A stretch of 58,842 nucleotides of DNA. Source: an uncultured virus (IMG/VR IMGVR_UViG_3300044701_002726). Taxonomy: Duplodnaviria > Heunggongvirae > Uroviricota > Caudoviricetes. The stretch lies in the IMG/VR virus record IMGVR_UViG_3300044701_002726. The stretch is one strand, 5' to 3'. Shown in pieces: positions 18,055-50,619 of this stretch. Position 1 is the first letter of the stretch; each line of letters begins with the position of its first letter. Made by a program: the position numbers and the translations under genes. Under the pieces are notes generated by a model. It was not told the origin of the DNA. It made no database searches and saw only the letters and a list, made by a program, of their open reading frames with translations.

Positions 18055-18396
18055 AAAAAATAAGTGCCGACTGATTGGGTGATAAGGTACAGTCGGCGAA
18101 ACCTCAGCTCAGCATGCTCTAGGCAGCTAAAGCGAAACGCTCATCGTTTGCGTTTATTTTATTTACTTTTTACGACTCTCTGTGTCGGATCGTCCATCTT
18201 TCTACTCTTTGCCCTGTCGAAACCAGGTCAGGCCCATTAGGAAGCATACTAAATCTGCACTTTTTCAGTCGGGGCTATCTGCTATTATGCAGCCTACCGG
18301 CAGTCCTTGACCGATCTTCATAGTATGCTTTCTGGTGGACCTGGAGGGAATCGAACCCTCGTCCAGAACACCTTTCAATTAACTTCATACGATCAT
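18055..18396 (-). ncRNA. ssrA: Circularly permuted (two-piece) tmRNA; tag peptide ANDERFALAA*
   Basis: T-arm GAGGG-TTCGATT-CCCTC + CAGGTCC-A-CCA (ends 18333) lies upstream of GGGCCTG..TTCGAC (starts 18235), with a G3.U alanine pair; tag ORF 18119-18151. Confidence 0.92.
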
Positions 18397-18402
18397 ATTA
18401 CT

Positions 18403-18431
18403 ACTATAACAGAAACTATTTATTTTGTCAA
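18403..18431 (-). promoter_or_regulatory. sigma70-type promoter for tmRNA
   Basis: TTGACA-N17-TATAGT. Confidence 0.8.
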
Positions 18432-18745
18432 GCAGGTTTACCGTTATTTGCCGGTTTAATTTCTTCGCCTGAACTGATAATACAATATGTCTTATCACCA
18501 GGAAAATATTCTACAAGAGTCCAAGATTTGGTTTCAAAATTAATATAAAGAGTAGTGTGAATCTTCATTGGTTGACTAGTAGTAACACTTTCTCTTATTG
18601 TTGCCATTTGAAATGCTGGTACTTCTTTGTATACTCTAAGCATTTCTCTCATCTGTTCTTCATCACCACAATCGATTGGGATTTGATAGTTTTGAGAAAA
18701 TGCAGCCAAAGGAAACATCATTAAAGCTGCGATTAGTGATTTCAT
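18428..18745 (-). CDS. Hypothetical secreted protein
   Basis: Signal-peptide-like N-terminus MKSLIAALMMFPLAAFS. Confidence 0.6.
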   Translation of the reverse strand: MKSLIAALMMFPLAAFSQNYQIPIDCGDEEQMREMLRVYKEVPAFQMATIRESVTTSQPMKIHTTLYINFETKSWTLVEYFPGDKTYCIISSGEEIKPANNGKPA

Positions 18746-19407
18746 TTCCAGTACCTTTCTATGAACTGGTTAAGTGGTGCAAGATATTTAGTCTTTTCTT
18801 CAATAAAAATTTGAGGAAATTCACTTTGCACAGCAATCGCCACAACGATCTGGTTGATTGACTTGCCAGTGAGTTCACCAAACATTTCTGCATATGCGGT
18901 AGCCTGCATAAAGTAATTCTGTATATGTTCAGCATCTTTCTTCTTTGATGCTGTTTTCCAGTCAACAATAGACAGTCTACCATCCCATTCTGCAATACAA
19001 TCACACCGACCTGCAAGTCTTAATTTGTGACTGTAAAGTGCCTGTTCAATACCATAGATATCACCAATATGCGAATCAATAAATGGTTTAACGGACATGA
19101 ACAATTCTTTGGTATCTGGCATCATAGTCTGCATTTTCATGTCAGACATTTCATTGAGTAGATAATTCTCTACTGTATTGTGTAACTTAGTACCACGACC
19201 TGCTGCCTGCCTTGATATCTTATTGGCTTCTTCTTCACCAACTCTTTGTCGCCATTCCATGATTGCTTGTTTATTGTATGATGACAAAACAGTAGTAATA
19301 GAAGGATAAAGTTTACCGTCAGGTGTTTTATACTTTCTTCCAGATTCGGTTGTTTCTGATACTAGATCAAAATCCAATTCTTTTAATTTGATATGATTAA
19401 ATGTCAT
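18742..19407 (-). CDS. PD-(D/E)XK (Cas4-like) exonuclease
   Basis: YPSITTVL, WRQRVGEEEA...RGTKLH, LAGRCDCIA...IVDWKT, YFMQATAYA; start revised to 19407. Confidence 0.88.
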   Translation of the reverse strand: MTFNHIKLKELDFDLVSETTESGRKYKTPDGKLYPSITTVLSSYNKQAIMEWRQRVGEEEANKISRQAAGRGTKLHNTVENYLLNEMSDMKMQTMMPDTKELFMSVKPFIDSHIGDIYGIEQALYSHKLRLAGRCDCIAEWDGRLSIVDWKTASKKKDAEHIQNYFMQATAYAEMFGELTGKSINQIVVAIAVQSEFPQIFIEEKTKYLAPLNQFIERYWK

Positions 19408-19715
19408 TAAGTGTTCTTCCATTTTCGGAAGTGTGTATCTACAATATTTCTTGTTCGAACATCTTTGATTGTTTTTTTACTGTATCGTTCACCAACAGGA
19501 GATTCTGGATGAGCCTCTGCAACTTTAGATAATACTTCTTTCCATGTATCGTCTGTCTTTGAATCGAAACTACCACTCATACTTGTGATACCAAAACTTG
19601 TTGGCATTTGTTGTATGTGTGGATTCTTTTGAAGCAATTCTTCTTTTCTTGAGTTGGTTAGAAAGTCTTCGAATTCTTCACTTGTTTCTGTATTTAAAAA
19701 TTTAAATGTTGGCAT
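19407..19715 (-). CDS. Conserved hypothetical protein (FmdB-like N-terminus)
   Basis: MPTFKFLNTETSEEFE...WKEVLSKVAEAHPES. Confidence 0.65.
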   Translation of the reverse strand: MPTFKFLNTETSEEFEDFLTNSRKEELLQKNPHIQQMPTSFGITSMSGSFDSKTDDTWKEVLSKVAEAHPESPVGERYSKKTIKDVRTRNIVDTHFRKWKNT

Positions 19716-20256
19716 CTAAATGATTTCCCATCTCAGTAAATATTCCCACAAAGAAATCGAAAGCTTTGTTTGCTTCATCTGCAAGACCCATACTCAATCT
19801 ATCACTAAACTCTTTAATTAATTTTGGTCGATCTTCAAATTGATATGAATACCCAGAACCAGGTATCACTCTTGCCATTAATTTTCCACCATATAGATCG
19901 CCCATGTGTCGAACATAAATGTGTGCAAACAACAAATGTTTTCTAGTTGGATCAGCTACAAGGTCTTTCAGATATTGAATATAGTTTGATGTAGACTCGA
20001 AAATATCACGCTCATATCCAGGCTCTAATTCATCTAAGTCTTGTTTTATTTTTGCTTGGCGTTTTACATCTGTTAAACCAAAAAGAAGACCTCCCTTTTC
20101 AGCAAGGTCTTCTAGAACACCATAAATGTGATACAACTCATACAGATAAAAAACATATTCTGGCTTTGTTACTTTGCCAGTCATTATTTTCTGTATGAGT
20201 GGAAGATTTTCTACTTCTCTGTGTTTATCATATGTTGCTTTAGCTAATATAGTCAT
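19702..20256 (-). CDS. Heme oxygenase
   Basis: Proximal His in ATYDKHREVE; distal helix AHIYVRHMGDLYGG; EANKAF. Confidence 0.88.
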   Translation of the reverse strand: MTILAKATYDKHREVENLPLIQKIMTGKVTKPEYVFYLYELYHIYGVLEDLAEKGGLLFGLTDVKRQAKIKQDLDELEPGYERDIFESTSNYIQYLKDLVADPTRKHLLFAHIYVRHMGDLYGGKLMARVIPGSGYSYQFEDRPKLIKEFSDRLSMGLADEANKAFDFFVGIFTEMGNHLDANI

Positions 20257-21070: not shown

Positions 21071-21264
21071 CTCCCATCATCTATCCAAAAACGGATTGTT
21101 AAAAATAACCATGAAACTGCCTTTGTCTTTTCATTAGGCCATTCGTTTGATGCAAAATATTTAGGTATGATATTCCAATGAAAAGGATTTATAGTGATGC
21201 TAACAGAAGCACCACTATAACGCAAGTAATTAAAGGCAGTTTTAAATTTACTTTCAGGCAGCAT
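21064..21264 (-). CDS. Hypothetical protein
   Basis: Tightly packed ORF. Confidence 0.55.
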   Translation of the reverse strand: MLPESKFKTAFNYLRYSGASVSITINPFHWNIIPKYFASNEWPNEKTKAVSWLFLTIRFWIDDGSW

Positions 21265-21822: not shown

Positions 21823-21844
21823 AATAATTTCCTTTGTGTGTAAG

Positions 21845-23072: not shown

Positions 23073-23076
23073 TATA

Positions 23077-25005: not shown

Positions 25006-25169
25006 CCTTTCAATAGTTGCCTATTGTCTGATTCTCTAAGGTCTTCTTCAAATTCAGCAACCTTGAGCCGATTGAGTTCGGTTTGTAATTGCAATTTCGC
25101 ACCTTCATCTCTTGCAATCTTTTCCTCAAGTTCACGAATCTGTCTTTTCAATTCATCTTTATGTGACAT
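25002..25169 (-). CDS. Small coiled-coil hypothetical protein (55 aa)
   Basis: MSHKDELKRQIRELEEKIARDEG...RQLLKG. Confidence 0.6.
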   Translation of the reverse strand: MSHKDELKRQIRELEEKIARDEGAKLQLQTELNRLKVAEFEEDLRESDNRQLLKG

Positions 25170-25311
25170 ACTCGGTTTTCTCTTCTCTCGCTAAGCGATA
25201 AAATGATTTGTCGTGATGTTTCTTTTTTTCAAACTTAATAGACTCTTTGTCTTTGTTTTTACGGAATTTTGTTTTGTGAGTCTTTTGGATTTTTTGACCG
25301 CCTGAAATCAT
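25159..25311 (-). CDS. Small basic hypothetical protein (50 aa)
   Basis: MISGGQKIQKTHKTKFRKNK...; overlaps next start. Confidence 0.5.
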   Translation of the reverse strand: MISGGQKIQKTHKTKFRKNKDKESIKFEKKKHHDKSFYRLAREEKTEYVT

Positions 25312-34568: not shown

Positions 34569-34645
34569 TGGTGCGCCCGGAGGGACTTGAACCCCCAACC
34601 AACGGATTATGAGTCCGCTGCTCTGACCAATTGAGCTACAGGCGC
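34569..34645 (-). tRNA. tRNA with CAT anticodon, Ile2 (lysidine)-type
   Basis: Cloverleaf, GCGGA-CTCATAA-TCCGT, encoded CCA; Ile2 vs Met identity inferred from body sequence. Confidence 0.88.
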
Positions 34646-36103: not shown

Positions 36104-38037
36104 TTAAAAGCCTCTACATTTAAAAATAAGTGAACGGTGTGTGGCATAACATATTTTGAAGCTGGATCTTTTCTGGTAATATTTTTAAAACCTGCCCATC
36201 CCAAATTAGTTCTTAATTGTTGTTCAGTAAAAAGAAACTTATGTGTTTGTCCTGGAACCCAAGGGTGTGCAAAAAAGTGCCCATATAGTAAAACTCTCCA
36301 ATCTTCAATATCCATTGTTGGTGATCCTTCAACAAATGACCGACAGGTCTCTAAAAAGTCTGGAGTTTCCAACCATAATCTTCCACCTGACTTCAATACA
36401 CGAAACCATTCTTCCAATACATCTTTAATCTCAAAGAAGTGAAAATGCTCAATGATATGAAATGCCTTTATTTCATCTACAGAGTTATCGTCATATGGCA
36501 ACTTCTGTACATCAAATCTAGCATCACAAACTGCATCATCGGGTGCATACAAATCTATGTTTATATATCCTTCAGTATAATCATGACCACATGCTAAATG
36601 CAACTTAAGTGAATCTAGCATTTCGTGTTTATTCTTCAATAAAGGCATTTTAGATTTACCAATTGAAGCCTGAGAAGTGTTTCTATGCAAATAAAAGATA
36701 GTTTGAATTTTCTTATCAACAAATTTATAATTACTTTTCCATAGACGAATCCACATATCCCAATCTTCTACACTATCAAGATTGCTATCAAATGAATTTT
36801 GAATAAAACAATCTTTTTTAGCAACAACTGAAGATATCCATATGAAATTTTTATACAACAGTTGTTTTCCAATAAAATCTTTTGGAATAGGTATGTTGAT
36901 AATATCCATCTTAGAATAGTTTTCATCTATAACAGTTGGTTTAGAGTAAACGATATCATACTCATTCGTATAAACTAAACTAGTCTCTAAATGATTTTCC
37001 ATCCAAGAATCATCAGAATCTAAAAATGCAATAATCTCACAACCATCTTTTATGGCCTGTTGTATTAGGAAATTTCTGCCATAACTTTGCCCTCTATTTT
37101 CATCACCTCTAAAGTAACGAATGGTTGGATCATTGTTAGACAAGAAAGAAACTGCATCTTGTAAATTGTCTGTAGAATTGTCATCATATATGTAATGTAC
37201 AACATCTTTATAAGTCTGTACCTTAACAGAATTGATACACTTGAACATATGATGAATGTCATTATAAATTGGTGTAATGACAGCAACAGTATTTTTTGTT
37301 ATACCTCTATTTACCCAATAAGGATTATGTTTCAAAGCAACTCTAAAAGAATTTTTAAGAAAGTTAGAACTCCAATTCTGAACTAAAGTTTGATCATGAA
37401 CAGTTCCTTCAGCTAAGTGATATATTGGATAGTTACCTGTATAAAATTTATTTGGGCTATGTGTTTTGGACACACACTCTTCGATTGTAAATCCATTGTC
37501 TTCTGCTAAGACACAAAACTCCATGTCTTCACAAGAACCAACACCATATTCTTCGTTTAGTAGACCTATTTTATTAAATACTTTTCTATCAATCATAACA
37601 CAGAAAAATATAGCAAAGTGTCTCATCAATACTGTTGAAAATTCTTTGACAACACATGAAATTCCACAATTTTGATTTTTAGAGAATTGGTCTTCCAATA
37701 CAGTCAACCATAAATTATGGGTTTGCTCTAAAAGAATACAATCATTGTTCAATAGAACTACTTTATCGCAAGTGGTTAATTTAATTCCCTCATTCGTTGC
37801 TTTTGGATATCCCAATGGTTGATCGTTCCAAGCATACTTGAAATTATCCTTTAAATTGAGTTTCGCAAAATATTCAGTCAACTCTTCTAGATATTGTTTT
37901 GTATTATCAGTACATCCATTTGCAGATATAACCAATTCTATATCTTTTACAGAAGAATACTTAAGTATTGACTCAACACACGGCTTTAATAAATCATCAC
38001 AGTGATTGTAAGTTGGTATGACTATAGAATATTTCAT
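36100..38037 (-). CDS. Tandem GT2-GT2 glycosyltransferase fused to SAM methyltransferase
   Basis: SIVIPTYN..LLNND; AVITPIYN..FLDSDD; LHLACG...HIIEH...VLKSGG. Confidence 0.85.
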   Translation of the reverse strand: MKYSIVIPTYNHCDDLLKPCVESILKYSSVKDIELVISANGCTDNTKQYLEELTEYFAKLNLKDNFKYAWNDQPLGYPKATNEGIKLTTCDKVVLLNNDCILLEQTHNLWLTVLEDQFSKNQNCGISCVVKEFSTVLMRHFAIFFCVMIDRKVFNKIGLLNEEYGVGSCEDMEFCVLAEDNGFTIEECVSKTHSPNKFYTGNYPIYHLAEGTVHDQTLVQNWSSNFLKNSFRVALKHNPYWVNRGITKNTVAVITPIYNDIHHMFKCINSVKVQTYKDVVHYIYDDNSTDNLQDAVSFLSNNDPTIRYFRGDENRGQSYGRNFLIQQAIKDGCEIIAFLDSDDSWMENHLETSLVYTNEYDIVYSKPTVIDENYSKMDIINIPIPKDFIGKQLLYKNFIWISSVVAKKDCFIQNSFDSNLDSVEDWDMWIRLWKSNYKFVDKKIQTIFYLHRNTSQASIGKSKMPLLKNKHEMLDSLKLHLACGHDYTEGYINIDLYAPDDAVCDARFDVQKLPYDDNSVDEIKAFHIIEHFHFFEIKDVLEEWFRVLKSGGRLWLETPDFLETCRSFVEGSPTMDIEDWRVLLYGHFFAHPWVPGQTHKFLFTEQQLRTNLGWAGFKNITRKDPASKYVMPHTVHLFLNVEAFK

Positions 38038-39245
38038 TTGATTGCTTCCACTCTAAAATTAGGTCCATCATGTCCAAGAATTTGTTCTTGCATAAATTTT
38101 ATGTCTCTAAATCCAGCACCAACTAAATGATCATACACTATTTCTGGATACCATCCAAAAAGATGTGGGCTAGTAATCTCTTCAGGATCACCAGAATGTC
38201 TAGTATTTACTGTGCCATAGATAGAAGTCAACAATCTATAACGCATCATTTTATCATTAGTGCTTATGAATTGTCTACACAATTCTTCAATATTTGGCAT
38301 CTCCATAATTAATTTGCCATTAGGTTTTAACACCCTTTTCCACTCAACAAGTGTCTTCATTATTTTAAATGGACTGATATGTTCAAAGACATGTGATGCT
38401 AAAATTTCATCTGCATAATTGTCACTGAAATCTAACTTTGTTATATCCATTTTTAGATCAGCTCTTTCATCATACAAGTCAATATTCAAGTAATCATCAT
38501 ATGGAAGAGGCCCAGAACCTAAATTTAATTTTGCATTTTTAAGATGACGATCATAAATTATAATTTTATTACGATTCAACACATCTTTGTAAGTTGGCAC
38601 TTTTGTTAGAAAAGTCTGACTAGATTTGTGAAAGATTGGAACTGTACCATTGTATCCAGTTTTTGTATTTTCCCAATTTCCAGCTTGTTTTAATTCAAAC
38701 CCACTATTTAAAGCACGCAAACAATAATCTATGTCTTCACAATTGCCTGGGGAAAAAACTTCATCTAATAGACCAATTTTGTTGATAACTTTTCTATCTA
38801 TCATAACGCAAAAGAAAAAAAGTAAATCTTTCTTCAAGTGCTTATCAGTCAACAACAAAGGACCAGTAATGCCAACTCTTTCATTTTCTAAAAATGGTTG
38901 CTCTAACATCTTTAACCAATAATCTTTGACTTGATCTAGGAGAACACAGTCATTATTCAATAAAATAATTTTTTCTCCAGTCGATATCTTTATCCCTTCA
39001 TTTATAGCTTTAGGATAACCAATTGCTTCATTGAACCAAACAGTTTTAAAGTTATTTGGCAAATTTTTTTCTGTGAAAAATGTTTTTAAATCTTGTAGAA
39101 ACAATTCAGTATTATCTTTGCATCCATTAGCAGAAATAATAAGTTCTATGTTTTCTATAGTTGTATGACGAATAATAGACTCAACACATGGGATTAAAAA
39201 TTCATTACAATAGTCATATGTTGGAATGATTATGGAATATTTCAA
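38034..39245 (-). CDS. GT2 glycosyltransferase fused to SAM methyltransferase
   Basis: SIIIPTY, LLNND, CEDIDYC; LNLGSG, HVFEH, RVLKPNG; N-terminus paralogous to neighbour. Confidence 0.85.
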   Translation of the reverse strand: MKYSIIIPTYDYCNEFLIPCVESIIRHTTIENIELIISANGCKDNTELFLQDLKTFFTEKNLPNNFKTVWFNEAIGYPKAINEGIKISTGEKIILLNNDCVLLDQVKDYWLKMLEQPFLENERVGITGPLLLTDKHLKKDLLFFFCVMIDRKVINKIGLLDEVFSPGNCEDIDYCLRALNSGFELKQAGNWENTKTGYNGTVPIFHKSSQTFLTKVPTYKDVLNRNKIIIYDRHLKNAKLNLGSGPLPYDDYLNIDLYDERADLKMDITKLDFSDNYADEILASHVFEHISPFKIMKTLVEWKRVLKPNGKLIMEMPNIEELCRQFISTNDKMMRYRLLTSIYGTVNTRHSGDPEEITSPHLFGWYPEIVYDHLVGAGFRDIKFMQEQILGHDGPNFRVEAIK

Positions 39246-40003
39246 AGTTTCTCCAAAGTCAAATTAGTTTTTGTCATATCAGCACAAGTATATTTCTGAT
39301 ATGAACACTTCAAGTTTTCAGGCATTTCAATTTCTCGTATATCATTTGTATATAATTTAGCAACATCTAAGAAACTCATAGTAGTACCAGTGCCAAGATT
39401 CCATACGCCAGATTCTTGTACATCTAGAAATTTTTCATGGTAGTCTACAATTTGATCGACATGCACAAAGTCTCTTTTGTAATTCTCACTATCTTTAAAT
39501 ACTTTCACATAGCCTAACTTTTCATGCTGAATTTTAAATTGTGTAAAAGGACTTGCTTGGGAACCTTTGTGTTCTTCATTAGAACCGTACACATTAAAAT
39601 AACGAAAAATTTGTGTGGTATGCTTTGATGGATTATTTTTTACATAACGCTCAAACATATATTTAGACCATGAATATGGAGTTCTAGGATCAACAGGTGA
39701 TTCTTCAGTAAACTCAGTATTCATTCCATAAACAGATGCTGAACTTGCAAACTGAAATTTTTTACCAGACAACTTACATAGATTATAAAGTTTTATTGAA
39801 AAATCATAGTTTTGTCTGAATATCTTGTCTACATCTTTTTCAGTAGTAGAACTAATACCACCAACATGAATTACCCATTCAACCATAGTGATGTCTGGAA
39901 ATTCTCTTCCCCATTCATAGGTAACAACATCATGCTTGTCTTTAAGCCTGTTTAATAAGTGTGACCCAATAAAGCCTTTGTGTCCTGTAATTAGTATTTT
40001 CAT
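39242..40003 (-). CDS. hldD: ADP-L-glycero-D-manno-heptose 6-epimerase (HldD/RfaD-like)
   Basis: ITGHKGFIG, ISSTTE, ASSASVYG, YSWSK, RYFNVYG.NEEHKG.QAS, RDFVHV. Confidence 0.8.
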   Translation of the reverse strand: MKILITGHKGFIGSHLLNRLKDKHDVVTYEWGREFPDITMVEWVIHVGGISSTTEKDVDKIFRQNYDFSIKLYNLCKLSGKKFQFASSASVYGMNTEFTEESPVDPRTPYSWSKYMFERYVKNNPSKHTTQIFRYFNVYGSNEEHKGSQASPFTQFKIQHEKLGYVKVFKDSENYKRDFVHVDQIVDYHEKFLDVQESGVWNLGTGTTMSFLDVAKLYTNDIREIEMPENLKCSYQKYTCADMTKTNLTLEKL

Positions 40004-40356
40004 TTCTGTGAATCTCCTGGCAAAACTCTATAGTTATCTTCAACGGAATCAGGAGTAGACACTTCTAGAATTGTTCCTTCTTTATAACAAACAACTTGAT
40101 GTGGGAAAAGTGGATCGTTATGCCATACATCACCTGCTTTCAAAACTTTTTCTTCAAGTTTAGCATTTTCAGTATTGATCCAACGAACAACAAATTCCCC
40201 ACTCATTACATACCAAGTCTCAATCTTTTCTTTATGAAAATGCATTGAGAATTTAGCAGCTTTCTTAAAATGCATGAATTTACTACAATAGTGATCGTTA
40301 GTAACCCAGATTTCTTCTGATCCCCAACCTTTTTCTACTTTACCTTCTAGTCGCAT
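40000..40356 (-). CDS. Cupin sugar-isomerase-like protein
   Basis: KGWGSE, FSMHFHKEK.ETWYV..G, PHQ, EVST. Confidence 0.75.
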   Translation of the reverse strand: MRLEGKVEKGWGSEEIWVTNDHYCSKFMHFKKAAKFSMHFHKEKIETWYVMSGEFVVRWINTENAKLEEKVLKAGDVWHNDPLFPHQVVCYKEGTILEVSTPDSVEDNYRVLPGDSQK

Positions 40357-41105
40357 ATCTCATCCAATGTCGGTGCATACACACCCATATGTTGAACAGT
40401 AATTGATGATGCTTTGTTTGCAAATTCTATTGCAGAACCTACATGGTTTGTTAGCAGATAGTTATAAACTAATGCTGCAAGAAAAGTATCACCTGCACCA
40501 CATACATCAGATACTTCTACAGGTTTTGCACTAAAGAATTTGCTTTTATATGTAGCACCTTTGTCACCAAGAGTAACAATCAAGTCAGAACAATATGACT
40601 TTGCTTGTTGATATTCTTTGTTGTTGATTTTAACAAAACAGCCTTCGAATCTAGAAAGTTCTGTCTTTTTAGTATCAATGAATATTGGGCAAGTTTGTTC
40701 TTGTCTTGTCTGTTCGATAAGTCCATAAGAAACACATCCCTTGTTGTAGTCAGAAAACACAATGGCGTCATATTTTTTATCTTTCAAGTTTAAAGTAAGT
40801 TCTTTTGATTCAACATCTTCATCTATGCGTAAAAGGTGCTGATTACTTTTGAGATCAATGAGTCTTGTTTTCTTAGAAGGTGCGCCAACTACCATATCGA
40901 CATCACAATTCAATGCCAATAGATTATTGCCAACATTAGAAGCCATACCTAATTTTAATTCTTGTTTTTCTGGAACAAAAATTGGTACTGGAGCTTCAGG
41001 ACTTAGTTTAGTGACATTACCGTACTGATAGATATCAATACAAGTATCACCGACTAATAATATCTTGAATTTTTTTTGTTGTGGAATATTCTTCAATTCG
41101 ATCAA
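40347..41105 (-). CDS. hldA: Heptose-7-phosphate kinase (RfaE domain I/HldA, PfkB family)
   Basis: LSPEAPVP, GMASNV, LLRID, SDYNKG, DVCGAGDTF. Confidence 0.85.
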   Translation of the reverse strand: MIELKNIPQQKKFKILLVGDTCIDIYQYGNVTKLSPEAPVPIFVPEKQELKLGMASNVGNNLLALNCDVDMVVGAPSKKTRLIDLKSNQHLLRIDEDVESKELTLNLKDKKYDAIVFSDYNKGCVSYGLIEQTRQEQTCPIFIDTKKTELSRFEGCFVKINNKEYQQAKSYCSDLIVTLGDKGATYKSKFFSAKPVEVSDVCGAGDTFLAALVYNYLLTNHVGSAIEFANKASSITVQHMGVYAPTLDEICD

Positions 41106-41439
41106 AATAAATCACCTGTTTACAATATTTTTCACCTGTAATACTCTTACCTCTATAATCAGAACCTTTCACCATTATATCACATTCTTTGATGAAGTCA
41201 ATCAATTCTTCTTTACTATCAAACAATCTTACCTCATCTACAGCCTTGAGGTTTTCCAACATCATTTTTCTTTCATACTGATTATTTATTGGTCTTTCAG
41301 AACCCTTTAGTTCTTTCACTCGACGATCCGTATCGATGCAAACCAAAAGAAAATCTCCCAAACTTCTCGCAAAGTTTAGGAGCTCTAAATGACCAACATG
41401 TAATATATCAAATGTACCGTTTACAATAATTTTCTTCAT
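41047..41439 (-). CDS. hldC: Heptose-1-phosphate adenylyltransferase (RfaE domain II/HldC)
   Basis: NGTFDILHVGH, VKELKG.ERPIN, VKGSDY, YSTT. Confidence 0.85.
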   Translation of the reverse strand: MKKIIVNGTFDILHVGHLELLNFARSLGDFLLVCIDTDRRVKELKGSERPINNQYERKMMLENLKAVDEVRLFDSKEELIDFIKECDIMVKGSDYRGKSITGEKYCKQVIYFDRIEEYSTTKKIQDIISR

Positions 41440-41444: not shown

Positions 41445-41452
41445 TATTTATG
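41445..41452 (-). promoter_or_regulatory. Late promoter variant CATAAATA heading the heptose/GT operon
   Basis: A few nt upstream of ATG 41439; overlaps tRNA-Arg CCA. Confidence 0.55.
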
Positions 41453-41525
41453 GCACCACTGAGAGGAATCGAACCCCTATTCTAGGTTTAGAAGACCCAT
41501 GTCCTATCCGTTGAACGACAGTGGT
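41451..41525 (-). tRNA. tRNA-Arg(TCT)
   Basis: Cloverleaf, anticodon loop CT-TCT-AA, CCA. Confidence 0.92.
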
Positions 41526-41530
41526 ATATC

Positions 41531-41613
41531 TGGTGCGAGTGGAGGGATTCGAACCCTCAATCCAAAGGCGGCAGATTTTAAGTCTGCTGTGTATACCGTT
41601 CCACCACACTCGC
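41531..41613 (-). tRNA. tRNA-Leu(TAA)
   Basis: Loop CT-TAA-AA, variable arm, CCA. Confidence 0.93.
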
Positions 41614-41658
41614 AATAAAAACATTATAACATAAATTTGTGTTGTTTACAGGTAATAT

Positions 41659-41735
41659 TGGTGCCTCAGGAGAGATTCGAACTCTCAGAATCTTGCTTCT
41701 AAGGCAAGCATGTTTACCAATTTCATCACCGAGGC
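41659..41735 (-). tRNA. tRNA-Leu(TAG), short variable region
   Basis: CTTGC-CTTAGAA-GCAAG, CCA. Confidence 0.9.
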
Positions 41736-41737
41736 AT

Positions 41738-41813
41738 TGGTGCGACCTAGAGGAATCGAACCTCTTTCCATGGCTCTTCAGGCCACTGCTATGACCACAT
41801 CAGCTAAAGTCGC
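41738..41813 (-). tRNA. tRNA-Phe(GAA)
   Basis: Loop CT-GAA-GA, CCA. Confidence 0.92.
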
Positions 41814-41814
41814 A

Positions 41815-41889
41815 TGGTGCATCGTGAAGGTTACGCTCCCTCTACCCTCTGCTTGTAAGGCAGACGCTCTACTATTGAGCTAACGATGC
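41815..41889 (-). tRNA. tRNA-Val(TAC), non-canonical T-loop
   Basis: Loop CT-TAC-AA; T-loop AGCGTAA; CCA. Confidence 0.88.
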
Positions 41890-41890
41890 A

Positions 41891-41966
41891 TGGGGTGTCC
41901 TATGAGGATCGAACTCATACTCTCTCGTTCACAGCAAGAGGTGCAGACCACTACACTAAGGACACC
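41891..41966 (-). tRNA. tRNA-His(GTG)
   Basis: Loop CT-GTG-AA; G-1:C73; CCA. Confidence 0.92.
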
Positions 41967-41975
41967 AAGAGCATT

Positions 41976-42049
41976 TGGAGCGGCTAAAGAGAATCGAACT
42001 CTTAACTTCTGCTTGGAAGGCAGTGGTTTTACCATTAAACTACAGCCGC
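41976..42049 (-). tRNA. tRNA-Gly(TCC)
   Basis: Loop CT-TCC-AA; U73; CCA. Confidence 0.92.
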
Positions 42050-42054
42050 TTATT

Positions 42055-42363
42055 TTAATCCCAGGATGGATATCCGCCTTGAATACAAATCATCTTCATC
42101 GGACCAGAATAATCTTTCCACTCAATTACTTTACCATTCTTATCAAGAGGCCTTAGATCAGGTAGAGCAAATGTCGTTCTACCATCTCCGCCATACTTTG
42201 TACCAATAATGGAAAAGAGTGCTTCATTTCCTTTTACTTGCATGATTTGCCCACTACAAGGTGCCCAATAACGAACACCTCTATAACCAGCAAATTCTGA
42301 AATTGAACCAAGCATATCACCATCCCATGATATACCAACTGTCTGTAATAATTTTTTAATCAT
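42055..42363 (-). CDS. Stand-alone phage tail collar domain protein
   Basis: GSISEFAG...WAPCSGQ...NEALFSIIGTKYGGDGRTTFALPDLR. Confidence 0.85.
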   Translation of the reverse strand: MIKKLLQTVGISWDGDMLGSISEFAGYRGVRYWAPCSGQIMQVKGNEALFSIIGTKYGGDGRTTFALPDLRPLDKNGKVIEWKDYSGPMKMICIQGGYPSWD

Positions 42364-42372
42364 ATTTTCTCC

Positions 42373-42840
42373 TTAAGCAGCTAAACTTTTGTAACGATCA
42401 GCAGCATATGATGCCGCAAACGCTCTTGGTTTTACCATAGGAATTACATTACAAGTTCCACGAATATAACCAATTGCTTCATTGATCACGCAATTTGAAC
42501 CATGCATTTCACTTGGGTTGATATCAAGGTGGACTTCTACATCACGACCTTCTAGAACATCAGCCAACTTTAAATACATTTCAGATACCTTGTATACTTC
42601 ATTCATCAAACGGTATCTCGGACGATCTTCTTTTTGGTCATAGTCTCTTTCACGAACAACTTCACCAAAAAGTTTGCAACCGTGTTTTCCATCTTTGTGA
42701 ACAACTATAGCAATTATATAGTCAGCATGCCACACTTCATTCACTCTTAATCTTTCAGAATCACATCCAAGATAAATTTTTGTTTCTGGCGATTGTCTTG
42801 AGATGTAATCTTTCACTTCTTGTAAATTTATCTTGAACAT
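42373..42840 (-). CDS. RNase H-like (YkuK/DUF458-type) protein
   Basis: IYLGCDS, IVVH..GKHG, RLMNEV, EVHLDIN, KP.AFAASYAAD. Confidence 0.75.
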   Translation of the reverse strand: MFKINLQEVKDYISRQSPETKIYLGCDSERLRVNEVWHADYIIAIVVHKDGKHGCKLFGEVVRERDYDQKEDRPRYRLMNEVYKVSEMYLKLADVLEGRDVEVHLDINPSEMHGSNCVINEAIGYIRGTCNVIPMVKPRAFAASYAADRYKSLAA

Positions 42841-42854
42841 GATATCTCCTTAAT

Positions 42855-42928
42855 TGGCCTCGGTGGACAGAATCGAACTGCCATGACTGGTTTTGGAGAC
42901 CAGCGTAATGCCTTTATACGACACCGAG
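42855..42928 (-). tRNA. tRNA-Trp(CCA)
   Basis: CTGGT-CTCCAAA-ACCAG; CCA. Confidence 0.92.
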
Positions 42929-42945
42929 ATTAAAACTACTTATAA

Positions 42946-43019
42946 TGGTCCTTCCTGATGGTTACGATCCACCGTCTAGCGGTTATCAACCGCTTGCTCT
43001 GCCATTGAGCTAAGGAAGG
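42946..43019 (-). tRNA. tRNA-Ile(GAT), non-canonical T-loop
   Basis: Loop TT-GAT-AA; T-loop ATCGTAA. Confidence 0.9.
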
Positions 43020-43021
43020 AT

Positions 43022-43096
43022 TGGCACCACCTAAAGGAATCAAACCCTTTCTACAATGTCCGTAGCATTGCGTGCTATTCAGTACACTAAGGTGGT
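43022..43096 (-). tRNA. tRNA-Arg(ACG)
   Basis: CAATG-CTACGGA-CATTG; CCA. Confidence 0.9.
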
Positions 43097-43103
43097 ATAA
43101 TTA

Positions 43104-43180
43104 TGGTCTGGGTAGAGAGGATCGAACTCCCGACCTCCTGCTCCCAAAGCAGGCGCACTACCTGGCTGTGCTATACCCAG
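43104..43180 (-). tRNA. tRNA-Pro(TGG)
   Basis: CCTGC-TTTGGGA-GCAGG; CCA. Confidence 0.93.
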
Positions 43181-43189
43181 ACGAAACTT

Positions 43190-43264
43190 TGGTGCCCCCG
43201 GAGAGATTTGAACTCCCGACCGCTCGCTTACAAGGCGAGAACTCTACCACTGAGCTACAGGGGC
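43190..43264 (-). tRNA. tRNA-Thr(TGT)
   Basis: CTCGC-CTTGTAA-GCGAG; CCA. Confidence 0.93.
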
Positions 43265-43269
43265 AAAAC

Positions 43270-43346
43270 TGGTGGCGATGGAAGGATTCGAGCCTTCGAT
43301 CTTTTCCGTATGAAGGAACTGCATTTGACCGCTATGCTACATCGCC
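43270..43346 (-). tRNA. tRNA-Met(CAT), elongator-type
   Basis: Loop TT-CAT-AC; paired G1-C72; CCA. Confidence 0.88.
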
Positions 43347-43516
43347 ATTAGTGAGAGTACTATCATATCTGTTTAAGGACACTTTTCAGTCCTCTCTGCA
43401 TCCCTTAGACTCACCACAAGTCTCGCACCAACGGCGTGGATTCATGCAAAGATGAGTACTACCACGATAGTCTGGCTGCTGGTTAGGCACTTCGTTCTAC
43501 AGACTCTCACTAATGG
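43345..43516 (-). ncRNA. Structured inter-tRNA element closed by a 14-bp terminal stem
   Basis: CCATTAGTGAGAGT...ACTCTCACTAATGG with several internal hairpins. Confidence 0.55.
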
Positions 43517-43588
43517 CTCCAGAGGTAGGGATCGAACCTACGACACACGGATTAACAGTCCGCTGATCTACCGCTGATCTACTCTGGA
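43514..43588 (-). tRNA. tRNA-Asn(GTT)
   Basis: GCGGA-CTGTTAA-TCCGT; CCA. Confidence 0.93.
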
Positions 43589-43590
43589 AC

Positions 43591-43782
43591 AGGTGCTTCC
43601 TCTCTGCGGTGGTAATTATAGTGTCTCCAGTTTCGAACCCTTCAACGACACCTTCCACCCACTTCACGACCAAAGAGAATTCTCGCATTGCCAGCGCCAT
43701 TTGCTCCAAATGGTAAGGTCCTGTGGGTATCACACCACTTCTCGACATGCGGACCACACTAGCCGTTGATTAGACGGCACGT
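43591..43782 (-). ncRNA. Large multi-stem ncRNA (~190 nt), possibly the manA RNA motif
   Basis: Stems GCCGT/ACGGC, GGTCC/GGACC, CCATTT/AAATGG, GTGTC/GACAC, closing GTGC/GCAC; size and tRNA-array context fit manA. Confidence 0.55.
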
Positions 43783-43783
43783 T

Positions 43784-43857
43784 TGGTAGCGGGTAGCCGA
43801 ATTGCACGACTAACTACAGCTTATGAGACTGTCGAGATACTATTTCTCTAACCCGCA
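43784..43857 (-). tRNA. tRNA-Met(CAT), initiator-like
   Basis: Unpaired 1:72, loop CT-CAT-AA, T-loop TGCAATT; lacks the three G-C anticodon-stem pairs. Confidence 0.82.
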
Positions 43858-43863
43858 ACAACT

Positions 43864-43938
43864 TGGCACCGTAGACGGGAATCGAACCCGCCGCAGTCTC
43901 ATAGACAGTGAGATATCACCCCAGGTGGCCTCTACGGT
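43864..43938 (-). tRNA. tRNA-Asp(GTC)
   Basis: TCTCA-CTGTCTA-TGAGA; G73; weak D-arm. Confidence 0.87.
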
Positions 43939-43943
43939 ATGAA

Positions 43944-44018
43944 TGGTAGGCGCACGGAGAATCGAACTCCGGTCAATAGATTAAAAGTCTACTGCTTTAA
44001 CCCCTAAGCTATACGCCC
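43944..44018 (-). tRNA. tRNA-Lys(TTT)
   Basis: Loop CT-TTT-AA; CCA. Confidence 0.92.
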
Positions 44019-44024
44019 AAAATT

Positions 44025-44132
44025 TGGTGCTATGTCCAACCTTGCAAGTAGGACTCTAATCGCAGTTTGAGAGGCATCGTTCCTAGGATCGAGAGGCACA
44101 TCCTGCCACAGCGTAAAGCGACGCTGTGCATC
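44025..44132 (-). ncRNA. Non-tRNA structured RNA ending in ACCA
   Basis: Hairpins ACAGCGT/ACGCTGT, AGGAT/ATCCT, GTCC/GGAC; TGCCTCTC twice. Confidence 0.5.
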
Positions 44133-44133
44133 T

Positions 44134-44209
44134 TGGTGGAGAGTATCGGGTTCGAACCGATGACCTCCTGCTTGCAAAGCAGGCGTTCTCCCAACTGAAC
44201 TAACTCCCC
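44134..44209 (-). tRNA. tRNA-Ala(TGC)
   Basis: CCTGC-TTTGCAA-GCAGG; G3.U70; CCA. Confidence 0.94.
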
Positions 44210-44270
44210 ATATTGAAACACACTATGCCACGCTCTGAACCTGGACTCTTAGTAATGTGTTCGAATATGG
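44208..44270. repeat. Hairpin cassette copy 1
   Basis: CCATATTGAAACACACT...AATGTGTTCGAATATGG. Confidence 0.75.
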
Positions 44271-44432
44271 TGTTGCTTGTTCCCGTCCGTCGGGCCAATG
44301 TGTCGGGCTTTATTGCTCTCTACCTATTCAGCCATTCCCATCGTCGAGAGTCAATGGGAAACATCTTGACACACCATCTAACTTAGATTACTTTGCCATT
44401 AGGCGTTTCATCTACTAGCAGTCAGCAAACCA
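44268..44432 (-). ncRNA. Non-tRNA structured RNA (~160 nt) ending in ACCA
   Basis: Stems TTGCT/AGCAA, TGTGTC/GACACA, TTCCCAT/ATGGGAA, ATCTA/TAGAT. Confidence 0.5.
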
Positions 44433-44537
44433 TATTGAAGCACACTGACAGTATCGAAACTGCCCACACCGCCGAAAGACGATGCTAGGTCCACTCCCAA
44501 GGCCGGCGCCGTCTAGCCTTAGTGTGCTTCAATATGG
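44430..44537. repeat. Hairpin cassette copy 2 (perfect 17-bp terminal inverted repeat, internal T-arm-like hairpin)
   Basis: CCATATTGAAGCACACT...AGTGTGCTTCAATATGG. Confidence 0.85.
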
Positions 44538-44646
44538 TGACCGGTGCTGTTTTTCCGGCTTTGCTGGTTTTGTCCTTTTGGGCTTGTCCAGCGGAACACC
44601 ACGGCTTTTCACCGTTGATCCTGCGTATCAGCCTACGCCTTCACCA
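44535..44646 (-). ncRNA. Non-tRNA structured RNA (~110 nt) ending in ACCA
   Basis: TGGTGA/TCACCA closure; GCGTA/TACGC, ACGG/CCGT, GCTGG/CCAGC, CCGG/CCGG hairpins. Confidence 0.5.
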
Positions 44647-44722
44647 TATTGAAGCACACTTAGACTACTACCCTACTCGATCATAGACTTTCAGAGCTTC
44701 ACCCAAATGTGCTTCAATATGG
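44644..44722. repeat. Hairpin cassette copy 3
   Basis: CCATATTGAAGCACACTT...AAATGTGCTTCAATATGG. Confidence 0.85.
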
Positions 44723-44807
44723 TGGGTGGTGATGGTAACGCTCCACGAGGCAACTTCCGATCTTATTATGCCGACGGTTTTACAGACCGCTGACCGGGGC
44801 ACCACCC
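44720..44807 (-). tRNA. Atypical tRNA-Tyr(GTA): no D-arm, 8/4 fold, long variable arm
   Basis: GCGGT-CTGTAAA-ACCGT anticodon arm; GGGTGGTG/CACCACCC-A-CCA acceptor. Confidence 0.7.
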
Positions 44808-44815
44808 ATATTCTT

Positions 44816-44938
44816 CCATTTGAAATGCTGACTGCACTATTTGCTATGTCGCACCAGACTTATCATGATTTACTGGTATATTGTCATAGTTACTCAGGTT
44901 TGATCATACCCGTGGCTTACAATCAGCATATCAAATGG
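44816..44938. repeat. Hairpin cassette copy 4 (diverged)
   Basis: CCATTTGAAATGCTGACTG...CAATCAGCATATCAAATGG. Confidence 0.65.
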
Positions 44939-45011
44939 TACACCTAGGGGGAATCGAACCCGCCGTTTATGCCTTGAAAGGGCATCGTCCTAACCGTTAG
45001 ACGATAGGTGC
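44936..45011 (-). tRNA. tRNA-Glu(TTC)
   Basis: ATGCC-CTTTCAA-GGCAT; CCA. Confidence 0.92.
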
Positions 45012-45026
45012 AAGTAACAACACAAA

Positions 45027-45039
45027 TTTTTAAAGAACA
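45027..45039 (-). promoter_or_regulatory. rrn-type boxA antitermination element
   Basis: TGTTCTTTAAAAA between promoter and first tRNA. Confidence 0.75.
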
Positions 45040-45060
45040 ATTCATCACATCATGTAGATC

Positions 45061-45113
45061 ATTATACACTAAACCTACGAATTGTCAACTACTACTGTTG
45101 TAAAAAAACAACA
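45061..45113 (-). promoter_or_regulatory. Internal tRNA-array promoter TTGACA-N16-TATAAT with TGTTG-N8-CAACA box (45096-45113)
   Basis: Motifs read directly. Confidence 0.82.
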
Positions 45114-45116
45114 AAG

Positions 45117-45194
45117 TGGAAGTACGGGTCGGATTCGAACCGACGAATCGTGAGTTTTGCAGGCTCCGCCATTAGACCGCTCTGGTACCGTACT
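45117..45194 (-). tRNA. tRNA-Cys(GCA)
   Basis: Loop CT-GCA-AA; U73; CCA. Confidence 0.9.
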
Positions 45195-45199
45195 ATAAC

Positions 45200-45289
45200 T
45201 GGTGGAGAATCAGGGAGTCGAACCCTGTGACCCTATTTCTAGAATCTACGGATTAGCAATCCGCTGCATTACCATCCTGCCCATTCTCC
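45200..45289 (-). tRNA. tRNA-Ser(GCT)
   Basis: Loop TT-GCT-AA; long variable arm; CCA. Confidence 0.92.
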
Positions 45290-45293
45290 GAAT

Positions 45294-45385
45294 TGGTGGA
45301 AGCGGTGAGATTCGAACTCACGGGCCACTTTCATGACCGACAGTTTTCAAGACTGTTGCAATAAACCGGACTCTGCCACACTTCC
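45294..45385 (-). tRNA. tRNA-Ser(TGA)
   Basis: Loop CT-TGA-AA; long variable arm; CCA. Confidence 0.92.
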
Positions 45386-45459
45386 ATATGGAAACACATT
45401 GCCAAGTAGAGCCATGGTATCTTGTGCGGGAGCAACCCCTACAATGTGCTTTCATATGG
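45384..45459. repeat. Hairpin cassette copy 5
   Basis: CCATATGGAAACACATTG...CAATGTGCTTTCATATGG. Confidence 0.75.
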
Positions 45460-45551
45460 TCCTTGGACTAGGATTCGAACCTAGATCATCCCCTCATCTA
45501 GAGGCATCGCCGAGGTATAAGCTCGGAGTTTTACCATTAAACTATCCAAGG
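45457..45551 (-). tRNA. Atypical tRNA with TAT anticodon (Ile-UAU) and 25-nt variable arm
   Basis: CCGAG-CTTATAC-CTCGG; variable hairpin CCTC-TAGAT-GAGG; canonical T-arm; CCA. Confidence 0.8.
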
Positions 45552-45553
45552 AT

Positions 45554-45631
45554 TGGTGGGGGATACTGGATTCGAACCAGTGAATGTCGGATTCAAAATC
45601 CGATGCCTTAGACCAGCTTGGCTAATCCCCT
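45554..45631 (-). tRNA. tRNA-Gln(TTG)
   Basis: TCGGA-TTTTGAA-TCCGA; CCA. Confidence 0.92.
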
Positions 45632-45646
45632 AATAAACAACACAAA

Positions 45647-45659
45647 TTTTTAAAGAGCG
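45647..45659 (-). promoter_or_regulatory. rrn-type boxA antitermination element
   Basis: CGCTCTTTAAAAA right after the attenuator; shares 21 nt with the 45027 copy. Confidence 0.75.
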
Positions 45660-45660
45660 G

Positions 45661-45698
45661 AAAACAAAAACCCCCGAATTTTTTAGGTTCGGGGGTTT
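45661..45698 (-). terminator. Attenuator terminator upstream of the tRNA array
   Basis: AAACCCCCGAA-N9-TTCGGGGGTTT then TTGTTTT. Confidence 0.88.
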
Positions 45699-45723
45699 GT
45701 GTGAAAAACGATTAAAACTATTT

Positions 45724-45840
45724 TTACGCAAACCCCCCAATATCACTAAAATTGCAATTTGGTGAGCGATACTCAGCCTGCCATGTGCCTGTTGCACTGG
45801 CCTTGAGAGTAATTGTAGTGAAATGTAAGGAAGTTTTCAT
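45724..45840 (-). CDS. Putative attenuator leader peptide, 38 aa (MKTSLHFTTITLKASATGTWQAEYRSPNCNFSDIGGFA)
   Basis: Starts ~10 nt below the -10 box; last codons form the 5' arm of an antiterminator. Confidence 0.7.
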   Translation of the reverse strand: MKTSLHFTTITLKASATGTWQAEYRSPNCNFSDIGGFA

Positions 45841-45849: not shown

Positions 45850-45878
45850 AGTGTATCAGTGTATTTAGTAAAAGTCAA
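45850..45878 (-). promoter_or_regulatory. tRNA operon promoter TTGACT-N17-TACACT with embedded late ACTAAATA (45862-45869)
   Basis: Motifs read directly. Confidence 0.75.
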
Positions 45879-49764: not shown

Positions 49765-49801
49765 GCTAAGTTAAAAATCTCCCATTTTGACTCTATTTAG
49801 T

Positions 49802-50092
49802 CTATTCTCCTAGATAAAATTTAAATCCAGTCATTGAGTCCCAACGAAACGACCGCCATTCTTGTTTTTCGAGATCAAAAACCGGCTGAGCATCATCGGA
49901 TTTTGCTTTTCCTGTGTTTTTTGGCATTTTTTCTTCAGGAATTTTTGATTCTGCAAGAGTACAAGTCATTTTTCGTTCGGATCCATCTTTTTTGACAAAA
50001 GAAATCGTCACTGGACCGTCTTTGAGCAGTCCAATGAACCATTTTTTATCTTTTTTAGTCTCAAACGGCAAAAAATTCAAATCTTTTTCCAT
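49802..50092 (-). CDS. Sm-like/WYL_2 (SH3 beta-barrel) protein
   Basis: VTISFVKKDGSERKMTCTL...VFDLEKQEWRSFRWD. Confidence 0.75.
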   Translation of the reverse strand: MEKDLNFLPFETKKDKKWFIGLLKDGPVTISFVKKDGSERKMTCTLAESKIPEEKMPKNTGKAKSDDAQPVFDLEKQEWRSFRWDSMTGFKFYLGE

Positions 50093-50099
50093 TTTTTCC

Positions 50100-50480
50100 T
50101 CATTTTGAATCGGCTATCGCCTTTAAATTGTCAATTAGTCTTACAGCATGCAATTTTGTCAATGCACGCTCCAGATATTCATCAAACCATTCTTGTGATT
50201 TTTCAGTTTTTCGTAAAATACAACCGTAAATATTCGATCCAACCAATCCTTTGATGTAAACCGATGGGTCTGCGAAGATTGCTTCGAATGTTTCATCAAA
50301 TTTTGGATTACCTAGATTGTCCTTGCTAAAAAAAGCCACATGGTACATGTCTCCGACGGACGAAGACCCCACTGGCTTTCCTTTGAACGACTCTTCTTTG
50401 AATTTAAAATATGATAAATTCAATTCGTCATCATCATCTCCTGGTAGAAAATAAAAACCATCGTAGTCTTCTTTAGCCAT
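50100..50480 (-). CDS. Hypothetical protein
   Basis: 126-aa ORF in operon. Confidence 0.6.
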   Translation of the reverse strand: MAKEDYDGFYFLPGDDDDELNLSYFKFKEESFKGKPVGSSSVGDMYHVAFFSKDNLGNPKFDETFEAIFADPSVYIKGLVGSNIYGCILRKTEKSQEWFDEYLERALTKLHAVRLIDNLKAIADSK

Positions 50481-50619
50481 AAGACATTTCCTTTTCTAAT
50501 TGTTTTTTATTTTTCTTGCGATCATAACGAACAGCACTTACTGCTACTCGCATACGATATTTAGGTGAGCGCAAATCTTTGGCTACGAGATTACGAGGTT
50601 TGGTATTTTTGATTCTCAT
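50473..50619 (-). CDS. Small basic protein resembling ArfA (48 aa)
   Basis: MRIKNTKPRNLVAKDLRSPKYRMRVAVSAVRYDRKKNKKQLEKEMSYG; overlaps both neighbours. Confidence 0.55.
   Translation of the reverse strand: MRIKNTKPRNLVAKDLRSPKYRMRVAVSAVRYDRKKNKKQLEKEMSYG

Follow-up and report, generated by a model that had tools for sequence, protein, structure and literature searches.

Leader-peptide attenuators such as trpL, hisL, thrL, and ilvL control amino acid operons, and boxA antitermination belongs to the ribosomal RNA (rRNA) operons. Why phages, for their part, carry transfer RNAs (tRNAs) has been an open question for more than 50 years (PMC10264068). Phage transfer-messenger RNAs (tmRNAs) have been cataloged (PMC11915505 and PMC4131195), and in the OM43 phage Melnitz a permuted ssrA gene with its own early promoter lies upstream of the gene for the late coactivator gp33, tmRNA being present in 17 of 47 contigs of the Melnitz cluster (PMC9004378). 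Here we consider the second half of the 120.8-kb record of an uncultured virus of the Caudoviricetes (IMG/VR IMGVR_UViG_3300044701_002726), a stretch of 58,842 nucleotides (nt) called the window below, in which a tRNA array, a two-piece (circularly permuted) tmRNA, a ClpP-family protease, and a short basic peptide are spread over 32 kb and four transcription units. An earlier note on this DNA had joined these parts into one coordinated translation-rescue system. The reading that we regard as probable is that of a translation-support toolkit whose parts are loosely linked, with a single likely feedback switch at the head of the array and with host-style processing signals, the other parts being under separate promoters. 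The attenuator that would form this switch is the strongest and best-supported part of the set at the level of sequence.

Leader and promoters of the tRNA array

The 24 tRNAs of the array (Table 1) serve 19 amino acids, the canonical tRNA-Tyr being absent from the ARAGORN predictions. At the head of the array, the start codon of a leader open reading frame (ORF) is placed 9 nt past the -10 box of its promoter, with no Shine-Dalgarno sequence, and codons 35 to 38 constitute the antiterminator strand of a region in which antiterminator and terminator compete (fold z score, -4.1). The direct antiterminator duplex is predicted at -15.2 kcal/mol versus -16.1 kcal/mol for the terminator. In an equilibrium model, the antiterminator reaches 0.94 to 0.99 when the ribosome stands at codons 24 to 30, and the terminator reaches 1.0 when it stands at codon 32 or beyond.

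A scan of IMG/VR for the terminator end followed by boxA recovered at least 120 loci, and a stricter pattern recovered 4. Among the matches listed, 63 distinct loci lie no more than 400 nt from a tRNA; in 57 of them an ORF ends 40 to 65 nt before the terminator G run, the stops actually observed falling at 42 to 63 nt. Removal of leaders more than 60% alike left 36 nonredundant leaders, the ORFs having been picked by position and not by content. All 20 amino acids are found in 19 of these 36 and at least 19 in 26, again among the matches listed. The corresponding expectation for all 20 per 36 same-length controls is 0.12 for phage proteins, 0.39 for the pooled leader composition, and 0.95 for a uniform composition, with a maximum of 6 in 2000 draws; that for at least 19 is 0.9 to 5.2 over the three controls. 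Leaders with 20 of 20 amino acids also occur in three near-complete genomes (G005, G033, and G039) that had been selected through gp32 or the peptide rather than through the leader pattern. Pairing between the final 10 codons and the 5' arm of the terminator is better than in shuffled sequences for 22 of the 36 (p <=0.05), and a -10-like box lies 4 to 10 nt before the start codon in 16, so such leaders are often leaderless. Leader composition, genomes picked on other grounds, and pairing thus give good support to the sensing and resupply that the earlier note had proposed, as far as the array is concerned, and point to the leader as a likely switch raising tRNA output when ribosomes slow.

In the mechanism that we propose, the near-leaderless 38-codon ORF, whose codons cover almost every amino acid, would sample the supply of each. 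A ribosome keeping pace with transcription would cover the G-rich strand and let the terminator form, while a lagging one would free this strand for pairing with the 5' arm of the terminator, and RNA polymerase would then read into the tRNAs. Downstream, boxA would, as it does in rRNA operons, bring in the Nus antitermination complex of the host. If this is true, a leader selected for every amino acid and gating tRNA transcription would mean that tRNA supply by the phage follows demand.

Some observations weigh against this mechanism. The 36 leaders are related and do not amount to 36 independent cases, and the window leader itself attains only a p of 0.22 in the shuffle-pairing test. With the ribosome at codon 20 or earlier, the equilibrium model still gives the terminator at 0.72 to 0.90, so that sensing at early codons would need the kinetics of cotranscriptional folding.

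The boxA sites reported in the earlier note are borne out as an 18-nt motif that occurs twice, with none expected from 100 shuffles, and its core is what we take to be boxA. A genome-wide count of the 10-nt core gave no excess over a reversed control, and the boxA assignment is thus carried by position and the 18-nt repeat. The perfect promoter inside the array has its own boxA and precedes 19 of the 24 tRNAs, bypassing the attenuator; it would provide a basal supply of these 19. The tRNAs that depend wholly on read-through are the first five (Gln, Ile[TAT], two Ser, and Cys), and it is to these that the earlier description of an attenuator-controlled tRNA set applies. In G005, G033, and G039, a promoter even lies between the terminator and the first tRNA. 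The switch likely tunes tRNA dose and is not an on/off gate. Two further features of the array may be recorded here: tRNA-Ile(TAT) (45457-45551, minus strand) is 95 nt long with a large variable arm, and an RNase H-like gene of family PF04308 (42373-42840, minus strand) recurs within the arrays of many relatives and could have a role in RNA processing.

Table 1. Coordinates of the features discussed, numbered from the first letter of the window
Feature	Position	Strand	Basis or remark
Leader ORF	45724..45840	-	38 codons, 19 amino acids (no Val); sequence, folding
Leader promoter, sigma70-type, extended -10	45850..45878	-	Promoter scan
Intrinsic terminator hairpin	45660..45699	-	-16.1 kcal/mol, U tract; folding
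First boxA motif, just past terminator	45641..45658	-	18-nt repeat
Second boxA motif, before tRNA-Glu	45021..45038	-	18-nt repeat
Sigma70 promoter inside array	45061..45088	-	Perfect consensus, match 12/12
Array of 24 tRNA genes	41451..45631	-	ARAGORN, Rfam; two ORFs and several non-tRNA RNAs inside
Lone tRNA, CAT anticodon, outside array	34569..34645	-	ARAGORN, Rfam
Fifth CCA-anchored stem, tRNA-Ile(TAT) to tRNA-Ser	45384..45459	-	11/14
Cassette zone, four CCA-anchored stems	44206..44936	-	Predicted RNase III sites (10, 14, 13, and 11 of 14) around three CCA-ending RNAs
Three-way-junction RNA inside processing stem	44820-44930	-	6 distinct copies, two-sided changes, not tRNA-shaped
RNA A, Tyr-like, CCA-ending	44723-44807	-	Between stems
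RNA B, CCA-ending	44537-44645	-	Between stems
RNA C, CCA-ending	44268-44431	-	Between stems
Conserved structured RNA of ~110 nt, tRNA-Ala to tRNA-Lys	44020..44133	-	6 distinct copies; CCA end here
Conserved multihelix RNA of ~200 nt, not tRNA-shaped	43590..43783	-	15 distinct homologs
Two-piece (circularly permuted) tmRNA, betaproteobacterial type	18044..18445	-	Rfam and ARAGORN
tmRNA promoter, sigma70-type	18431-18403	-	Promoter scan
tmRNA intervening segment, 97 nt, closed by stem	18236..18332	-	RNase III consensus 12/14
ClpP-family protease, 191 amino acids	25331..25906	-	PF00574, E 4e-33
Basic peptide, 48 amino acids, probable family DUF7230	50473..50619	-	58 homologs

Processing stems, small RNAs, and the two-piece tmRNA

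Five long stems in the array link the CCA ends to the 5' G of the next RNA, and a like stem closes the intervening segment of the tmRNA. They were scored against the ribonuclease (RNase) III consensus of Krinke and Wulff as quoted in PMC5141509. A score of 10/14 is common by chance genome-wide; at 12/14 and above, 4 pairings are observed in the array versus 0.09 expected from 100 shuffles. The exact window stem is found in 21 IMG/VR contigs, where it typically begins at the CCA end, and in the arrays that were fetched, 101 of 206 distinct CCA-anchored stems reach at least 11/14. Of these 101, 91 share a single register, and several pairs show compensatory changes. Cleavage is predicted 4 nt past the CCA on one side and some 3 nt ahead of the following G on the other. 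In the tRNA cluster of phage T4 there are only scattered duplexes of 10 to 12 of 14, none of them CCA-anchored as judged by eye. RNase III processes T4 tRNAs, a point for which our literature search found no confirming paper.

The tmRNA itself, claimed in the earlier note, is confirmed by 139.6 bits to RF01850 (beta_tmRNA; cutoff, 84) and 130.5 bits to RF04321 (tmRNA_permuted; cutoff, 47), and ARAGORN reads its tag as ANDERFALAA. The acceptor piece comes first, followed by the intervening segment and the coding piece. As read off the Rfam alignment, it has a G3-U70 alanine pair, an encoded CCA, and a tag frame with a hydrophobic Ala-Ala end, all of which are tmRNA hallmarks. Because the tag is identical to those of Accumulibacter and Rhodocyclaceae records, we infer a betaproteobacterial host with a two-piece tmRNA. 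The phage tmRNA would use the host SmpB and write a host-type tag read by the host ClpX/ClpA.

Among intervening segments of phage tmRNAs, nearly all of the 34 parsed have, by eye, a long stem right after the CCA, with the strict motif in 11. In some tmRNAs (L055, L043, L365, and L003), the segment extends to 190 to 280 nt or has small ORF-like inserts, and the closing stem is kept. A scan of GTDB covering 120 bacterial loci gave 20 permuted tmRNAs, of which 17 were parsed; 13 have a hairpin of 23 to 48 nt in the equivalent place. The strict motif is present in none of these 13 hairpins, and the 3' arm of the same stem is found in four bacterial two-piece tmRNAs, two of them from Thauera. These counts include misparsed segments, 4 of the 17 bacterial ones and at least 1 of the 34 from phages.

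The stem motif that the earlier note had seen in both tmRNA and array is thus real, but it is a generic RNase III consensus. Given this consensus and the like stems in bacteria, the shared stem is no sign of coordination, and we rule it out as a mark of coregulation. The simplest reading of the sequences is that it represents a maturation signal for a host enzyme that came with this betaproteobacterial two-piece tmRNA design. Host RNase III would cut the CCA-anchored stems and leave short ends for normal tRNA trimming, and the same kind of stem would serve to remove the intervening segment of the tmRNA. Such a reading would explain the maturation of both array and two-piece tmRNA and the swapping of cassettes.

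This swapping is seen in the cassette zone, where a near-identical relative (99% gp32 identity) has other content between the same stems (44430-45010, minus strand, versus L106:5670-6570). Several of the L106 cassettes end in a T-arm-like hairpin plus CCA, the tRNA-Glu allele differs, and the changes stop at the stems. The window cassettes hold three CCA-ending RNAs that are found only in the present phage or its near-identical relative, and the earlier designation of tRNA mimics fits them unevenly. RNA A has a tRNA shape, with a 7-bp acceptor stem and a GUA anticodon arm but no D arm, in an array with no normal tRNA-Tyr; RNAs B and C have terminal stems but no T-loop consensus.

Other structured RNAs of the array are more widely conserved. 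The ~200-nt RNA at 43590-43783 displays two-sided changes at 22 of 37 predicted pairs (13 sequences) and has no Rfam match; in some relatives it lies near the tmRNA and gp32 and not in the array. The RNA at 44020-44133, which is likewise not tRNA-shaped, displays two-sided changes at 8 of 30 pairs (5 sequences). For the spacer RNAs, a known ribozyme or riboswitch identity was rejected as there is no Rfam match, and identity with Y RNA (YrlA) was rejected at 17 to 20 bits versus a cutoff of 69, these hits lying over ordinary tRNAs.

ClpP, the DUF7230 peptide, and the question of coordination

The protease of the earlier note stands: in addition to its PF00574 match, its Ser, His, and Asp align with those of solved ClpP structures, giving an intact catalytic triad. 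It sits in a block of genes for RNase H, DUF6433, and a glycosyltransferase. A very basic 50-amino-acid ORF follows it directly (25159-25311, minus strand), with no Atlas lead (0.77). The peptide gene is one of a conserved run of neighbors, the others being WYL_2, a conserved gene of unknown function, and RNase H, into which an array may or may not be inserted (80 loci); it has its own stop codon after 48 codons, overlapping the next start, and its operon promoter is at 51050. ClpP and the peptide probably aid protein turnover and ribosome release, and nothing ties either to the tag or to the switch.

If these parts formed one coordinated answer to host defense or starvation, the attenuator would sense, the tRNAs resupply, the tmRNA and an ArfA-like peptide rescue, and ClpP degrade, with the CCA-ending RNAs as nuclease decoys. 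Co-occurrence speaks in its favor up to a point. Of the 42 long contigs searched, 12 are near-complete records (at least 90%). The permuted tmRNA is found in all 12 of these and in 34 of all 42, including distant large phages picked by the stem or the attenuator, whereas any tmRNA at all is given for 2.3% of deposited phage genomes (PMC9004378). ClpP occurs in 10 of the 12 (27 of 42), the peptide in 8 (23 of 42), at least 20 tRNAs in 10, and an array-head leader with at least 19 amino acids in 7; all five parts are together in 6. The near-complete records were, however, picked by these same parts (3 by gp32, 1 by the stem, 5 by terminator-boxA, and 3 by the peptide), which inflates the co-occurrence. 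Further, the records that lack ClpP, those that lack the peptide, and those that lack the attenuator are not the same. In G002, G003, and G035, no such leader was seen at the array head, nor was one seen in two G008 stretches; the leader of G022 has 12 amino acids and lies 1 kb away from a tRNA. ClpP is missing at its site in 6 of 12 loci that reach the tmRNA and have an RNase H at least 72% identical, and PF00574 is detected in none of five contigs without ClpP at this site, which are mostly small fragments. Hence, the check across relatives that the earlier note had called for shows parts that recur and losses that differ by record.

Shared control gives a similar picture. A TGTTG-N-CAACA palindrome, possibly an operator, lies just upstream of at least eight sigma70-type early promoters (23883, 24493, 24947, 29788, 45096, 51057, and two outside the window). 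It is common to the internal promoter of the array and the promoter of the peptide operon, as coordination would have it, but precedes at least six others and not the tmRNA or leader promoters, and as most of these promoters are unrelated, we rejected it as the mark of a rescue regulon. Upstream of the tmRNA, neither boxA nor terminator was found in any of 25 parsed loci (ARAGORN called no tmRNA in 5 of 30), and there is no attenuator; tRNAs lie within 1.5 kb of the tmRNA in 2 of the 30. In five near relatives, searches that detected their controls found no tag-reading ATPase of the ClpX/ClpA type (AAA_2, PF07724), no SmpB, and no SspB. The estimated completeness of G001, a near-identical relative, is 68%, and absences from the present record consequently prove little. 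Moreover, the peptide lacks the design that couples ArfA to tmRNA: ArfA is made from a nonstop mRNA and is hence tmRNA repressed (PMC8012679), whereas the peptide gene has a normal stop and no hydrophobic tail or internal terminator. The different cassette contents of near-identical phages are what an arms race would give, and phage tRNAs have been proposed to act against tRNA-cutting defenses (PMC10264068); PMC11464382 and PMC11555353 are listed on the same subject. With no shared regulation or adjacency detected, losses that differ by record, and none of the three partner proteins found in near relatives, we consider the coordination unlikely. The parts are typical of the lineage and lost in different records, with no dedicated shared control detected.

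The opposite view of a loose toolkit also has points to answer. The tmRNA, ClpP, the peptide, and at least 20 tRNAs are together in 8 of the 12 near-complete records, both records with only 7 tRNAs also have no peptide, and two fragmentary contigs place the tmRNA inside an array (2 of 30 loci). The losses being too few, correlated inheritance of the parts is possible.

A stronger form of coordination, which we view with considerable doubt, would be a closed feedback loop on the health of host translation. The all-20 leader would report cut or uncharged tRNAs and open an rRNA operon-style transcript, RNase III would free tRNAs together with fast-evolving CCA-ending decoys, and tmRNA, ClpP, and a new ArfA-like release cofactor (DUF7230) would clear stalled ribosomes. 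If true, it would constitute a general, sensor-driven answer to tRNA-cutting defenses.

The last alternative dispenses with rescue: the tRNAs and tmRNA would replace degraded host RNAs or recycle host proteins, ClpP would remodel host or phage proteins, and the peptide would be a basic early protein binding ribosomes or nucleic acids, with a function unrelated to that of ArfA. Recycling of host proteins has indeed been suggested as an alternative role for phage tmRNA (PMC9004378), and ClpP falls far below the NCBIfam cutoffs for cellular ClpP (103.8 versus 249 bits and 87.4 versus 308.6 bits). Further grounds come from the peptide. The PF03889 (ArfA) profile gives no match to the window peptide, one match among 57 homologs (E 0.065), and none in five genomes. 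In the peptide, Lys takes the place of ArfA Ala18, a residue whose change to Thr abolishes function (PMC8012679), and the glycine-lysine loop that precedes the basic tail of ArfA is seen in 0 of 76 family members. Factors of the ArfA type are specific to their hosts (PMC8012679). The peptide resembles ArfA in size, in basic charge, and in the pattern N..P.[FY]R.RV...Y.RK over 29 columns. An hhalign comparison with Escherichia coli ArfA over these 29 columns gives a probability of 4.9% (P 0.008). Against a role apart from rescue, a profile built from 112 phage hits gives E. coli-type ArfA 9.8 to 12.6 bits, the maximum over 2000 shuffles being 8.6, and PF03889 is carried by 23% of the members of one Atlas cluster (0.91). 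Other searches were less telling: tblastn with the peptide found nothing, no solved structure aligned at E <=10, and a single-chain AlphaFold model has no helix at residues 15 to 24 but is uninformative at a predicted template modeling score (pTM) of 0.30. The assignment to DUF7230 (PF23876) stands at E 0.54 for the window peptide, with 45 of 57 homologs at E <=1 and a best value of 2.7e-6, and the profile matches this gene in 13 of the 42 contigs, 3 of them over the cutoff. We class the peptide of the earlier note as probably DUF7230 and not as ArfA, to which its likeness is only remote; its sequence suggests that it may have an ArfA-like function. An explanation without rescue also leaves the all-amino-acid leader unexplained and appears quite improbable.

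The genomic setting is that of a T4-like phage, with baseplate genes, gp32, gp59, gp33, and RNase H in the window, and the genomes of the lineage measure 160 to 215 kb. The nearest cultured gp32 is that of Pelagibacter phage HTVC008M (55% identity), and no close cultured relative was found; the tmRNA has matches in 19 phage records, which cover just 18% of it. An RNA search for transcripts of the phage returned a single run (share, 0.05) with only pieces of other phages. Directly after the array (34656-41439, minus strand) are genes for glycosyltransferases, methyltransferase fusions, an epimerase, a cupin, and a split heptose kinase/adenylyltransferase. Elsewhere on the minus strand are a heme oxygenase gene (19702-20256; PF01126), about nine copies of the short AGAGTCTC repeat around an early promoter (52430-52660), and a protein with an ADP-ribosyltransferase domain (56097-57053; PF03496), presumably of the T4 Alt/Mod host-takeover kind.

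Comparison with described systems

Two-piece tmRNA, ClpP, and tRNAs are already known from phages, and for this reason a synthesis of the parts adds little unless their coordination is demonstrated. Huge phages combine tRNAs and tmRNA in one genome, where SmpB is noted and the set is already read as translation and rescue support (PMC7162821), and phage G has tmRNA, tRNAs, and ClpP together with ClpX (PMC12484599). The present lineage, with its genomes of 160 to 215 kb, differs from both in that SmpB and ClpX were not found in its near relatives and in the addition of the attenuator. As in Melnitz, a permuted ssrA with its own early promoter lies upstream of gp33, but the present tmRNA is of the betaproteobacterial type, with a tag identical to that of Rhodocyclales-type bacteria. 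Its intervening segment is also longer (97 nt versus 23 to 48 nt) and includes a variable insert.

The tRNA cluster of phage T4 (NC_000866) likewise starts with tRNA-Gln and has the stable species 1 and 2 RNAs (rnaC and rnaD) embedded in it. As species 1 and 2 have long been known, there is precedent for additional stable RNAs in the tRNA clusters of phages; in the present array there are more of them, with fast turnover, and several are framed by stems. Bacterial rRNA operons offer the closest precedent for the other signals, having a boxA-like motif after a promoter or terminator and long stems with the RNase III consensus and the geometry of a 2-nt overhang. The phage stems differ in lying between tRNAs, in incorporating the CCA of the upstream RNA, and in enclosing swappable small RNAs.

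The new element is the all-amino-acid leader. A literature search found no published leader attenuator before phage tRNAs, most subscription papers lying beyond its coverage. Like the attenuators of amino acid operons, the phage leader is a short translated ORF whose last codons overlap the strand that competes with an intrinsic terminator. It is distinguished from them by gating tRNA genes, followed by boxA, by being often leaderless, and by sampling nearly all 20 amino acids where the classical leaders have a run of one to three.

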